DNA of 64,000 bases from Escherichia coli (lineage in GTDB: Bacteria; Pseudomonadota; Gammaproteobacteria; Enterobacterales; Enterobacteriaceae), in NCBI RefSeq assembly GCF_003018235.1, contig NZ_CP027437.1, one strand, 5' to 3'. The position numbers and the translations under genes are program-made. Below are positions 4,945 to 59,244 of the stretch, in pieces; position 1 is the stretch's first letter; each line of letters begins with the position of its first letter. The notes beneath the pieces were generated by a model, which searched no databases, was not told the origin of the DNA, and saw only the letters and a list, made by a program, of their open reading frames with translations.

Positions 4945-6129
4945 TTAATTTGCAGCTTCCTGACGATGAAAACCTCGCCACCAGACCAGTAAGTTAACCA
5001 GGGCAATCGTCGCGCCAGCCAGACAAACGCCAGCCCAACCGCCATGTTGCCAGGCTGAGGCTGAAATTAGCGAACCGGCGGCACCGCCAATAAAGTAGCT
5101 GGTCATGTAACCTGCGGTCAGGCGATTACGCGCATCAGGGTGTATTCGATAAATTACCGTCTGGTTAGTGATATGCACGCCCTGCACGGTGAGATCCAGC
5201 ACCAGGATGCCGATAATCAAGGCCAGTACGGAAGTGTGGCCAAACCAGATCGCCAGCCATGAAAGTAATAGCAGCAGCAGACCGAAAGTAGTGGTGTGGT
5301 GCGATTTACCCTTATCGGCAAAACCGCCCGCCGGACGAGCACCCAACGCTCCGGCAGCTCCCGCAAGTCCAAACAGACCAATTACACCATCGCTGTAGTT
5401 AAAAGGTGGAGCGGCAAGCAAAAAGGCCATTGAGGTCCAGAGAATGCTGAAGTTGGCAAAGGTGAGGCAGCCCAGCAACGCACGGGTGCGCAGGATCTTA
5501 TCGCTGATAAACATGCTGAAAACGGAACCCAACAACTGTGGGTAGTTGAGGTGGGTTTCTGATTTCATTTGTGGCAGACCACGCCATAATGCCAGCGCCA
5601 TCAGTGCCATTAACACCGAGGCAACCCAAAAGACGGTGCGCCAGCCGCCGAGGTTTGCCAGCAACCCGGCAACGGTTCGTGCCAGCAAGATCCCCAACAG
5701 CAGCCCGCTCATAATGGTGCCGACCACTTTGCCGCGTTTGTCTGGTGAAGCCAGCGTCGCTGCCAGCGGAACCAGAATTTGTGCCACGACCGAGAATAAA
5801 CCGGTCAATGCCGTACCGAGGATCATCATCGCCAGTGACTGACTGCTGGCAGTGATTAACATACCGCCCGCTGCCAGTAAGGTCATCGAGACAATCAGGC
5901 GGCGGCGTTCAAACATATCACCGAGGGGAACAAGAAACAGCAGACCTGCGGCATAGCCCAACTGCGCGGCGGTAACAATAAAGCCCGCCGAACTGGCGGA
6001 AAGGGAAAAGTTACGCGCGATGGTGTCGAGTAATGGCTGGGCGTAATAGTTACTGGCTACCGCCAGACCGGTGGCGATAGACATCAGCACGATCAGCGCC
6101 GGGCTAAGCTCATGATTAGGTTTAGTCAT
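4945..6129 (-). CDS. ygaY: MFS transporter YgaY, intact 394-aa ORF here (split pseudogene ygaX/ygaY in K-12 as I recall)
   Basis: Uninterrupted 12-TMS-like ORF; position between ygaZ and proX. Confidence 0.8.
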   Translation of the reverse strand: MTKPNHELSPALIVLMSIATGLAVASNYYAQPLLDTIARNFSLSASSAGFIVTAAQLGYAAGLLFLVPLGDMFERRRLIVSMTLLAAGGMLITASSQSLAMMILGTALTGLFSVVAQILVPLAATLASPDKRGKVVGTIMSGLLLGILLARTVAGLLANLGGWRTVFWVASVLMALMALALWRGLPQMKSETHLNYPQLLGSVFSMFISDKILRTRALLGCLTFANFSILWTSMAFLLAAPPFNYSDGVIGLFGLAGAAGALGARPAGGFADKGKSHHTTTFGLLLLLLSWLAIWFGHTSVLALIIGILVLDLTVQGVHITNQTVIYRIHPDARNRLTAGYMTSYFIGGAAGSLISASAWQHGGWAGVCLAGATIALVNLLVWWRGFHRQEAAN

Positions 6130-54869: not shown

Positions 54870-54905
54870 ATCAATAAAAAAGGCCCCCCGATTTGGGAGG
54901 CCTTA
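54870..54905 (-). terminator. pheA attenuator terminator hairpin (ggcctcccaaatcggggggcc + U-run on minus strand)
   Basis: GC hairpin plus T-run between pheL and pheA. Confidence 0.75.
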
Positions 54906-54950
54906 TTGTTCGTCTTCGCATTCTGTTTCACACGACGAAACGCCTCCCAT

Positions 54951-54998
54951 TCAGGGGAAGGTAAAAAAGAATGCGAAGAAAAACGGTGTGTGTTTCAT
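54951..54998 (-). CDS. pheL: pheA leader peptide PheL (15 aa, 7 Phe codons): MKHTPFFFAFFFTFP
   Basis: Small ORF read by hand on minus strand; placed relative to overlapping track ORF 54865..55080. Confidence 0.9.
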   Translation of the reverse strand: MKHTPFFFAFFFTFP

Positions 54999-55004
54999 GT
55001 TTGT

Positions 55005-55163: not shown

Positions 55164-56153
55164 CTATATGGACAGATTATGGACGCTTTCAGCCAGTGGA
55201 TTAAAGCTTATAGCATCCTGTAAAAAATCCGGTGCAAAATGCGCATATGTCATTGTTTGCTGGATAGTTGAATGTCCAAGAATCCGTTGAAGTGTTACTA
55301 TATTTCCTCCATTCATCATAAAGTGTGTTGCAAACGTATGCCGCATAACATGAGTTGCCTGTCCTTTGGGCAGATCTGGTTTTACTTCCTTTAGTGCTCG
55401 TCGAAAGTTTGTGTAATTAACATTAAACAATGCACCAGATTGTTTTATCTTGATGAGCTTTATAACTTCTTCGGATATAGGTATGGCGCGGGGTTTATTG
55501 GTTTTTGTCTGATTAAACATAACTCTGTTTCCCACAATATTTTCTCCCCGTAGTTTTGTTGCCTCTCCCCACCTTGCTCCTGTCGAAAGACACAGAATCG
55601 CTATTCGTTTGTTATCTCCAGTAAGATGATTGAGCAAGCGATCAATCTCTTCGTTTGATAAAAACGACATATCTGATGGTACAATCCTCAACTTCCTCAG
55701 ACCATGTAGCGGATTTGCATGGTGGAATTCTTCAGCATTAATCAGCACTGAAAACATGGCTGAAAGTACGCAGAGATCCCTGTTTACCGTGTTGGGTGTC
55801 AGTCCTGCACTGAGTTTGTTTGCACGATAACTCAGAAGGAACTTTCTGGTTACACCGTTGGCTCTGGGATCTCCCATTTCTCTGATCACTTTATTCAGCC
55901 TTTGCAGGTATGTCTCACCATAAGGCTGATTTTGCCCGTCGAGCATCCACCACATTTCGGCAAGTTCGGAAAGATGGCGTTTGTCTGCGGGTTTTTCCAG
56001 CCATGGTTTGTTATGCATGTTCTGAAGAACATATTTTTCATAATCCTGCGCTTTCGACTTCAGGGTGAAAATTTTTCGAATCCGCTTCCCTTCCGCACCC
56101 TGAGGTCTGACATCAACCTGATAACGTCCGTCTTTGAGCTGCTTAATCGACAT
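55164..56153 (-). CDS. int: Tyrosine recombinase, phage P2 Int family
   Basis: ORF 55164..56168; N-terminus MSIKQLKDGRYQVDVRP and C-terminal catalytic region ...HVMRHTFATHFMMNGGNIVTLQRILGHSTIQQTMTYAHF recognised as P2-like Int. Confidence 0.9.
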   Translation of the reverse strand: MSIKQLKDGRYQVDVRPQGAEGKRIRKIFTLKSKAQDYEKYVLQNMHNKPWLEKPADKRHLSELAEMWWMLDGQNQPYGETYLQRLNKVIREMGDPRANGVTRKFLLSYRANKLSAGLTPNTVNRDLCVLSAMFSVLINAEEFHHANPLHGLRKLRIVPSDMSFLSNEEIDRLLNHLTGDNKRIAILCLSTGARWGEATKLRGENIVGNRVMFNQTKTNKPRAIPISEEVIKLIKIKQSGALFNVNYTNFRRALKEVKPDLPKGQATHVMRHTFATHFMMNGGNIVTLQRILGHSTIQQTMTYAHFAPDFLQDAISFNPLAESVHNLSI

Positions 56154-56243
56154 GATTAGCACCTCCAACGGTATTTTGTTGCTTTAATACATTTCTGTAC
56201 CTTGTAATGTATTCAATATGCAGGCCAAACCAGCATCCTGGTG

Positions 56244-57127: not shown

Positions 57128-57290
57128 AACGGTATTTATTAGTAAGCAACAAGAAAGTGAATTAAACTCATCGGCAATAACTCGTTATTAAATTGTCATA
57201 CTGTCTGAAACTATTTCCTTCTATTACTGATGTGTGAGGCACGGAAAGGGAATTCCGTTTTTTTAGTGGTGCGATGAGAAAATAACAGAG

Positions 57291-57485
57291 GTGTCAGAAA
57301 TGGAAAAAGAAAAACTGAGACATTTTCGTAAAGAATTAAAAGCTTCTCAGCGTGTAATGACTTTGGCTATTAAGCGATTAGAGGAAGGACGTTATAAGTC
57401 TGCAGTGGAACTCATGCGTGCAGAAGCAGCGGATATATTTAAACTGGCAGATGAATTAAGTGATGTAACAGAACAACAATCCTGA
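57291..57485 (+). CDS. Hypothetical small coiled-coil protein (64 aa)
   Basis: ORF with AGAGG RBS; charged helical composition. Confidence 0.45.
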   Translation: MSEMEKEKLRHFRKELKASQRVMTLAIKRLEEGRYKSAVELMRAEAADIFKLADELSDVTEQQS

Positions 57486-58281
57486 ACACAGGAAAGTTAT
57501 GGGCTTGTGTGATTCAGAAAGTGTGAGGTTACGTGCAAAATGGCCAGACATGTAAAAAAGAACTTGAATGCAGTGTCGGCATGGTGGTATTTTTCATCTG
57601 CTGCCACAGTGCTGGCAGTCGGGAATACCACCCCGTATGTGTCAACGGCGACATCAGACGCCGCAAGCGTCTTTTTTGTTGTCGTAACCTTATACGCCAT
57701 GAAGCTCCATTTTATGGTGCGGTGTTATCCATTAAGAGCCGTTGCAAGCGCCTCTACCGGAAGGGGCTGGATAACATCCACCACCATGTCAATGGTAGCT
57801 CAGGCGGGGCCGACTTCGGTCGGGCCGGTTTCCGTTGGCACCGGTAGTGGTATCCCCGTCTGGGCTATCGCCAGTGAGCATACCACCTCCTGCGATAGCA
57901 GTATGTTATGTCAACGGAGGCTGCCTGAATGGCTACAATCCCAACCCAAAAGCGCCCAAAATCCGCGCTCCCCCAGCTCAGCAGTGACTGTCGTCGCCGG
58001 ATACACCGTGTGCAGATGGTTACGCTCCATTATTACATTCAGTGTCTCGCTGATAATCCGTGTTCAGTTGATTTTTGTTTTCCGTACTTATTGTCTTACA
58101 TCCACGATGATATTAAGGCTATAGATAATGAGTTAATTTCTCTTGGCCTGTTTGAACAGGCGATGGGAAAGAAAAAACGACGATAGTTTTCATCGTTATT
58201 AATTAACGTTGTCAGGAAGTATTAAACACACCGCTCACGCGGCGGGAATCTTACATCTTAAATATCTGACGAGGTGGAAAC

Positions 58282-58437
58282 ATGAAGCTGTTTTCATTAC
58301 GTAAAAATAAAAAAACGGAAAAAAAGAAACGCACTTATCCGGCAAATAATAACGTCCGTCTGTTACGTTATTACCAGAAATTACAGGAATTAAGTTGTGA
58401 ACCGGATAAAAAGTTCAGCCTGGATGTGTGGATGTAA
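58282..58437 (+). CDS. Hypothetical Lys-rich small protein (51 aa), below ORF-track cutoff
   Basis: ATG preceded by GAGGTGG; stop immediately before exonuclease gene start. Confidence 0.4.
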   Translation: MKLFSLRKNKKTEKKKRTYPANNNVRLLRYYQKLQELSCEPDKKFSLDVWM

Positions 58438-59025: not shown

Positions 59026-59244
59026 GTGAATAAAGCACAACGTAATGCTGCAGCGGCAGCGAATCGTCACAGGGTCTCGCCGGAACAGGTGCTCATCTGG
59101 TGTGAGCAACTGAAACGCATTGTGGACACAGCAAACCAGAATACGCGGCACAACGAAAAGAGCAGGGCGCTTGAGCCGATTATTGCGTGGATTGAGCAGC
59201 AGAAGAAACAGGCAATGGAAGAAATCAGAAAACGGGGTGAATGA
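59026..59244 (+). CDS. Hypothetical protein (72 aa), translationally coupled
   Basis: GTG start one nt after exonuclease stop; stop overlaps next start (ATGA). Confidence 0.45.
   Translation: MNKAQRNAAAAANRHRVSPEQVLIWCEQLKRIVDTANQNTRHNEKSRALEPIIAWIEQQKKQAMEEIRKRGE

Follow-up and report, generated by a model that had tools for sequence, protein, structure and literature searches.

The immunity region immI of phages P1 and P7 (c4 RNA - icd - ant) is organised around an RNA with two loops, a' and b', an upstream pair of targets, a1 and b1, and a downstream pair, a2 and b2; in P1 the downstream pair lies over the ribosome site of the first gene, and the arrangement controls an anti-repressor. 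The satellite P4, from which modules of this kind were first described, follows the same pairing logic, with seqB, seqA and seqC in the places of a'b', a1b1 and a2b2, and its parts succeed each other in the order PLE - seqA - cI RNA - seqC - kil/eta - epsilon. A further arrangement of this kind, isrK - orf45 - anrP, is found in Gifsy-1 of Salmonella. Here we report on a segment of about 0.8 kb (57490-58280) in a stretch of 64,000 nucleotides (nt) from Escherichia coli (RefSeq assembly GCF_003018235.1, contig NZ_CP027437.1; hereafter the window), the layout of which is like that of P1 and collinear with that of P4. The segment is a structured regulatory RNA cassette with a small gene; a retron, an origin and a decayed gene can be rejected. 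It very probably represents a P4-type RNA immunity cassette inside the early operon of a P2-like prophage (P88/Xuanwuvirus-like). Elements of this kind are well known; what the window holds is a mostly unannotated or mis-annotated example in an unreported host-element context, and the literature that we searched contained no description of C4/epsilon cassettes in P2-like phages.

An earlier note on this DNA, made from the letters alone, had placed the segment between an open reading frame (ORF) of 64 amino acids (aa; 57291-57485) and a lysine-rich ORF of 51 aa (58282-58437) and had remarked on its raised GC content, its closed minus strand and a hairpin, CCGAC-TTCG-GTCGG. All of these observations are confirmed: the GC content is 0.53-0.61 at 57600-57999 versus 0.36-0.38 on either side, the longest minus-strand ORF does not exceed 67 aa, and the hairpin is located at 57810-57823. 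Its placement by Rfam identifies this hairpin as the first inner stem-loop of an antisense RNA of the C4/CI family (Table 1 gives the coordinates of all features). The match to the C4 family (RF01695) reaches 74.2 bits (gathering threshold 45, E ~1e-13) and covers model positions 1-87 of 87; C4 and isrK are the only Rfam families that match in the segment. In a BLAST comparison, 57788-57947 is 76.5% identical to the cI/'ash' region of P4, and read by sequence the outer stem of the RNA is tRNA-like, with a 3' end in ...GCCA. The structure is supported by comparison: among 11 sequences all cells of its 27 pairs are paired (100%) and 11 pairs have changed on both sides, a result reached by 0 of 500 shuffles, and in slid controls the pairing drops to 31-48%. 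The fold has a z-score of -4.4. Among the readings offered by the earlier note, that of a structured non-coding RNA or regulatory region is thereby the one that stands, with an E-value and a folding z-score far beyond chance.

The loops of the C4 RNA are complementary to two sets of targets, b1 and a1 in the leader and b2 and a2 downstream. Predicted duplexes comprise 12 base pairs (bp) between the a' loop and a2 and 7 bp between b' and b2. Loops and both target sets co-vary in 11/11 cassettes, and the complementary sites are found at fixed positions in all of them (leader offsets 25 and 40, downstream offsets 4 and ~33). About five a' and about five b' target classes exist among these cassettes, and they have been reassorted: loci L006 and L007 have the same b' and different a', and ES5, L005, L006 and L008 have the same a' with three different b'. 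For the leader targets the predicted duplex energy averages -21.7 kcal/mol in cognate and -12.5 in non-cognate combinations; for the downstream targets the corresponding means are -24.1 and -14.4 kcal/mol, and the cognate target ranked first for almost every RNA. Such joint diversification of loops and targets bears the signature of selection for separate immunity groups. In addition, a short sequence just 3' of the C4 RNA, GCGATAGC (57892-57899), is complementary to the 3' strand of the outer stem, GCTATCGC (57864-57871); this complementarity is kept in all long cassettes including P4 and could represent an alternative pairing in the unprocessed precursor.

The earlier statement that the segment has no convincing ORF does not hold for its last third. 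A protein-like frame is absent over 57490-57928 only, and the 85-aa ORF that follows had been overlooked despite the GGAGG that precedes it. Its product matches the Pfam family Derepression (PF25738, the P4 epsilon family) with E 4.1e-8 over residues 15-82. Compared with P4 epsilon it shows 35% identity across the C-terminal 34 aa, that is in the C-terminal third only (BLASTP E 6e-6). Homologues fall into 15 clusters, all of which carry PF25738; NCBIfam gave no match for any small ORF. Against seven homologues the ratio of non-synonymous to synonymous substitution rates (dN/dS) is 0.26-0.59, and the C-terminal motif SYIHDDIxAIDNELISLGLF is conserved. Judged by these comparisons, the ORF is a real gene under purifying selection. 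Its first ~78 nt are rich in C and poor in G (C/G 2.1-3.2 in all relatives; 1.9 in P4 kil), which fits a Rho-utilisation (rut-like) tract like that of P4 timm. The two hairpins behind its stop codon may serve as terminators or stabilisers, their role being uncertain.

Upstream of the C4 RNA lies a probable leader of the isrK / P4 seqA type. Among 12 sequences its three helices are paired in 96.6% of the cells, 9 pairs have changed on both sides and again 0 of 500 shuffles reach this; the fold z-score is -3.0. The alignment to the isrK model of Rfam begins at 57600, the presumed start of transcription from a putative internal sigma-70 promoter, the hexamers of which match in position and spacing the TTGCCT-18-TATAGT upstream of the P4 leader (the PLE equivalent) and have equivalents in every relative. 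The spacer between the leader terminator and the C4 RNA varies among relatives in sequence and in length, the length differences always being multiples of 3, and does not fold significantly by itself (z -1.8).

Table 1. Features of the cassette in the window (positions are those of the whole 64,000-nt stretch).
Feature	Position	Strand	Remarks
Eta-like ORF, 194 codons	57540-58124	+	spans leader, C4 RNA and targets; overlaps epsilon-like gene in another frame
Putative internal sigma-70 promoter	57564-57593	+	TTGAAT (57564-57569), 18-nt spacer, TATTTT (57588-57593), start near G57600; read by eye
Leader RNA, probably of isrK / P4 seqA (a1b1) type	57600-57677	+	Rfam isrK (1 bit below gathering) and fold
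Leader hairpin 1	57600-57619	+	leader fold
Leader hairpin 2	57620-57635	+	loop presents b1 = ATACCAC (57625-57631)
a1 target = TGTCAACGG	57640-57648	+	complementary to C4 a' loop
Leader intrinsic terminator	stem 57656-57672, T-run ending 57677	+	called by consensus scan
Spacer/precursor region, 110 nt	57678-57787	+	between leader terminator and C4 RNA
C4/CI-family antisense RNA	57788-57875	+	outer 17-bp stem, CCGAC-UUCG-GUCGG hairpin, second hairpin, 3' end ...GCCA
a' loop of C4 RNA, 12 nt	57829-57840	+	in second hairpin
b' single-stranded junction of C4 RNA	57846-57853	+	
Downstream target (P4 seqC / P1 a2b2 equivalent)	57880-57920	+	pairs with C4 loops (predicted)
b2 target = ATACCAC	57880-57886	+	
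a2 target = TGTCAACGGAGG	57909-57920	+	contains GGAGG Shine-Dalgarno (57916-57920), 8 nt before ATG 57929
Epsilon-like 'derepression protein' gene, 85 aa	57929-58186	+	PF25738, GGAGG site, purifying selection
Hairpins after epsilon-like stop	58176-58197 and 58229-58244	not assigned	consensus scan, fold z-score -2.2

The probable membership of the leader in the isrK family also suits another interpretation, in which the cassette would serve mainly to induce, as a positive switch like IsrK of Gifsy-1: the short terminated leader RNA with b1 and a1 would accumulate under some condition, titrate or displace the C4 element, turn on translation of the anti-repressor and so induce the prophage. For orf45 of Gifsy-1, conservation of the nucleotide but not of the protein sequence has been reported, together with a short RNA processed from it (PMC4825925), and P88, a relative with a cassette of this kind, is mitomycin-inducible. 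In contrast, the genetics of P4 and P1, as summarised in PMC10111431, give net repression by the RNA. We regard a switch of the Gifsy-1 type as possible, if somewhat unlikely; it is in any case a variant of the same module and not an exclusive alternative.

The closest counterpart is the immunity region of P4. Searched against Rfam, this region yields the same series of families (isrK with 60.8 bits, c4-a1b1, and C4 with 74.9 bits); the isrK family thus corresponds to the P4 leader carrying seqA, as is also stated in PMC10111431. The alignment between the window and P4 is collinear from the promoter-like element via leader, RNA and downstream target to the first translated gene. Both show the same order of parts, an identical promoter spacing, an isrK-like leader that holds a terminator and a pair of targets, a C4 RNA of nearly the same outer stem, a second target over GGAGG, an ORF of ~195-200 codons with its start upstream of the internal promoter, and a gene of the epsilon family downstream. 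They differ in that the element in the window is a P2-like phage, i.e. a potential helper, whereas P4 is a satellite, and in their loop and target sequences; the specificity of immunity therefore differs from that of P4. With immI of P1 and P7 the cassette shares the Rfam family and the arrangement of loops and targets, but it would regulate an 85-aa protein of the epsilon type in place of Icd/Ant, and its leader terminator and eta-like ORF are features of P4. The Gifsy-1 arrangement resembles it in the isrK-like leader, in a terminator that is partially read through, in a region conserved at the nucleotide level and in the control of an anti-repressor's translation by RNA pairing. In Gifsy-1, however, the leader small RNA (sRNA) was shown to be an activator in trans, and the anti-repressor belongs to another family.

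Gene order was compared in 9 loci, consisting of a near-identical E. coli locus (99.1%) and eight more in E. coli and Salmonella. It runs from the integrase via a helix-turn-helix (HTH) C repressor, a Cox-family gene, small ORFs, the cassette and the 51-aa ORF to a 3'-5' exonuclease, a RecE-like gene and, further on, an endonuclease of the P2 gpA type; in these loci the cassette prophage is located next to pheL/pheA or elsewhere. From this shared gene order it follows that the host element is a P2-like prophage with the cassette in its early operon; it is of the P88/Xuanwuvirus type, and in the window it adjoins pheL. The integrase gene (55164-56168, minus strand) is separated by ~165 bp from the Phe leader, the pheL/pheA attenuator (54874-54999, minus strand; Rfam 132 bits), so that the prophage is inserted immediately beside the pheA regulatory region. 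Of 5426 complete E. coli genomes, 2120 contain C4-like sequences, located on chromosomes as well as plasmids, and only 7 contain the whole cassette. Neither the 36-mer covering a' and b' nor the 23-mer covering a' of the window has an exact match in IMG/VR; the 25-mer covering b' recovers one further P2-like prophage of the same class there, not a satellite.

The rarity of the whole cassette among complete E. coli genomes might suggest an inert relic, i.e. a piece of a P4-like satellite or a decayed gene left behind in the prophage. The epsilon type of the window likewise gave no match in deposited phages by tblastn, and the RecE-like gene nearby is annotated as a pseudogene. A relic is nevertheless very unlikely. 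Prophages of both E. coli and Salmonella carry the same cassette at the same position, in combination with different integrases and with three C repressors that are unrelated or diverged. The loops of the cassette have changed in concert with both sets of targets, and its epsilon-like gene is under purifying selection. The decayed gene considered in the earlier note is not supported either, since the cassette is conserved with compensatory changes in prophages of both hosts. Cassette and epsilon-like gene occur with at least three types of C repressor (L006 616-972 and L012 9852-10166 are 19% and 37% identical to the C of the window) and with two types of integrase; the immunity modules based on RNA and on protein therefore assort independently of each other.

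The 194-codon frame that spans most of the cassette had been taken for random translation. This is right in so far as no constraint on its amino acids can be seen, but the frame has been kept open in all relatives. It contains zero stops in 9/9 long cassettes and is also open in P4, whereas the other frames carry 1-8 stops; measured against dinucleotide shuffles, this openness has P = 0.003-0.03 per element. Its start codon precedes the putative internal transcription start by 60 nt, relatives have an in-frame ATG at -60 (-66 in one case), and in four Salmonella-type relatives this ATG follows 4-5 nt past the stop of the preceding ORF. The counterpart frame of P4 begins with three adjacent ATGs that give 197-199 aa, which equals the published Eta. 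These features point to selection for an open frame. At the same time dN/dS is ~0.8-2, the codon-position test that had been suggested for this frame gives even substitutions (e.g. 14/15/13) and hence no protein-coding signal, and the conserved 'residues' are located over RNA stems only. It is the openness of the frame without protein-level constraint that leads to the analogy with eta in place of a conventional gene: the frame is probably an eta-like ORF that matters through the act of translation and not through its product. As summarised in PMC10111431 (after Forti 1999), eta of P4 contains a constitutive promoter, is translated only from the upstream promoter, and its translation prevents termination.

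One might also argue that the segment is simply protein-coding and that the product of the frame is a working repressor or a member of the 'Ash family'. The frame gives a weak match to Phage_ASH of Pfam (PF10554, E 4e-4) and a match to PHROG 6928 'transcriptional repressor' (E 4e-18), it is open in all relatives, and PGAP assigns the names 'ash family protein' and 'Icd-like protein' on relatives. Both matched families, however, trace to the legacy 137-aa cI/ash ORF of P4, which overlies the CI RNA, and immunity in P4 is exerted by RNA (PMC10111431). A Phage_ASH protein selected as such is contradicted by dN/dS ~1 and the lack of codon-position bias, and a functional protein is very unlikely. 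RefSeq either leaves the region without annotation or calls it 'ash family protein' or 'Icd-like protein (pseudo)', names that arise because a conserved RNA gene was translated. A retron msr/msd, an iteron origin or another class of structured RNA, as a GC-rich, structured region without obvious protein may bring to mind, is hardly credible at all: no reverse transcriptase gene is found among the neighbours, Rfam returns C4 and isrK only and no retron RNA family, and a repeat search of the segment produced neither iterons nor tandem repeats, only chance two-copy matches and the C4/target complementarities.

Several observations weigh against a P4-type cassette and have to be considered. The covariance search that the earlier note had advised places the C4 RNA full-length above its threshold and the leader just below; the isrK model (RF01394) scores 49.0 bits (E 1e-8), 1 bit short of the gathering value of 50, and the c4-a1b1 model (RF03163) gives no match on the leader in the same Rfam scan. 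The putative promoter was not called by a strict consensus promoter scan. In P4, kil (65 aa, MATTLTPSHPEF...) directly follows seqC, with epsilon behind it; in the window the epsilon-like gene stands in the place of kil, with which it shares the first few codons only, and kil is missing. The eta-like frame of the window stops within the epsilon-like gene, in a different reading frame, and not as Kil; its overlap with that gene is statistically not unusual (P 0.10-0.16, shuffles) and gives no ground for a selected overlapping gene. The epsilon-like protein, whose family would be expected to bind and inactivate a P2-type C repressor, also does not co-vary with the phage's own C repressor, being 85% identical where C is 37% identical (L012) and 57-71% identical where C is ~19% identical (L006), a lack of co-variation that neither supports nor excludes self-derepression and is uninformative about the real target. 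Finally, an intrinsic-terminator-like hairpin, ACGGAAAGGGAATTCCGT followed by T7, is found on the plus strand between the cox-family gene and the 64-aa ORF (57241-57265, stem 57241-57258). Such a structure inside the early operon raises the question of how much early transcription reaches the cassette.

A P4-type cassette in this position would work as follows, with promoter activity, RNA processing, termination and the anti-repressor activity with its target modelled on P4, P1 and Gifsy-1. In the lysogen C would repress the early promoter, and the internal promoter would start transcription near 57600 and make leader and precursor. The leader, untranslated from this promoter, would carry b1, a1 and the intrinsic terminator, and transcripts that read through would carry the C4 RNA, which as in P1 and P4 may be cut out of the transcript, with RNase P acting at the 5' end, and accumulate. 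Its loops a' and b' would then pair with a2 and b2, thereby covering the GGAGG of the epsilon-like gene, and with a1 and b1; the complementarity is observed, and the pairing is expected to block translation. Transcription would stop at the leader terminator, and the block of translation would leave the C-rich start of the gene naked and lead to a Rho-dependent stop as at timm of P4. As an outcome, the anti-repressor and the genes beyond it would stay off, and elements with the same target sequences would be shut down in trans. Upon infection or induction, transcripts from the early promoter would include the ATG at 57540, and ribosomes would cross the whole cassette, melt the RNA structures and suppress termination, so that read-through would reach the exonuclease, RecE-like and replication genes. 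The leader may also compete for the C4 RNA in trans, comparable to the IsrK sRNA that activates anrP translation in Gifsy-1.

The RNA-controlled anti-repressor module known from P4, P1 and Gifsy-1 thus appears to be conserved in the early operon of a P2-like phage lineage as well. The cassette is the expected kind of element and not a new mechanism, and it provides a concrete handle on cross-immunity between helper and satellite and between phages. A published census of P4 satellites used PF10554 as the marker for epsilon. Since PF10554 was built on the legacy cI/ash ORF of P4, this census in effect tracked the CI RNA / eta region and not the epsilon protein (PF25738). According to the published P4 census, no P4-specific gene other than delta has clear homologues in P2-like phages. 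A far-reaching extension, which we regard as tentative and unlikely, would be that helper-type phages of the P88/Xuanwuvirus lineage carry P4-type RNA-immunity/epsilon cassettes of their own (in the closest relatives a pair per genome, orthogonal to each other), with a'/b' specificities reassorted independently of C; they would form a second immunity layer, based on RNA ('immI'), in Peduoviridae with possible cross-talk between helper and satellite. If this were true, the C4 RNA of a prophage could silence an incoming satellite with matching seqA/seqC, the CI RNA of a satellite could silence the anti-repressor of the helper, and the cassettes would add to delta as homologues of P4 genes in P2-like phages.

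A second cassette of a short form occurs in the same prophage lineage (L001 16571-17055, ~1 kb past the end of the window). It scores 68 bits with isrK and 80 bits with C4, has a 35-nt spacer, different a'/b' loops and a 76-aa 'derepression protein', and immediately precedes gene A, which encodes the replication endonuclease; the same form is found in L012 (3-209), in P88 (NC_026014 4979-5512, L011) and in other Xuanwuvirus. The cassette upstream of gene A in P88/Xuanwuvirus (Peduoviridae) resembles that of the window in combining isrK, C4 and a 'derepression protein' in a P2-like early operon, and differs from it in its short form, its other loop specificities and its epsilon type, which is only 25% identical to that of the window. 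One frame of the short form is open throughout (209 codons), and in P88 a minus-strand 'hypothetical protein' coding sequence (5033-5221) is annotated over the cassette RNA. In E. coli SCU-111 (L004 3114-4154) an insertion of ~358 bp relative to the window, placed behind codon 20 of the epsilon-like gene, represents a second complete unit of promoter, leader, C4 RNA and target with a different specificity. The intact epsilon-like gene now stands behind cassette b, and behind cassette a there is a truncated fusion ORF with the annotation 'ash family protein'; the arrangement suggests that cassettes were stacked through recombination at the conserved GGAGGCTGCC..ATGGCTACAA junction.

Among the neighbouring genes, the RecE/exonuclease VIII-like ORF of 680 aa (59241-61283, plus strand) matches only the N-terminal ~420 of 877 profile positions. 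Its equivalent in the 99%-identical prophage is flagged by PGAP as an incomplete pseudogene, and in the Salmonella relatives its counterparts are 708-800 aa long. A tmRNA (ssrA, 295 bits; 36756-37118, minus strand) and a tRNA gene (28870-28942, plus strand) in the host part of the window are unrelated to the cassette.

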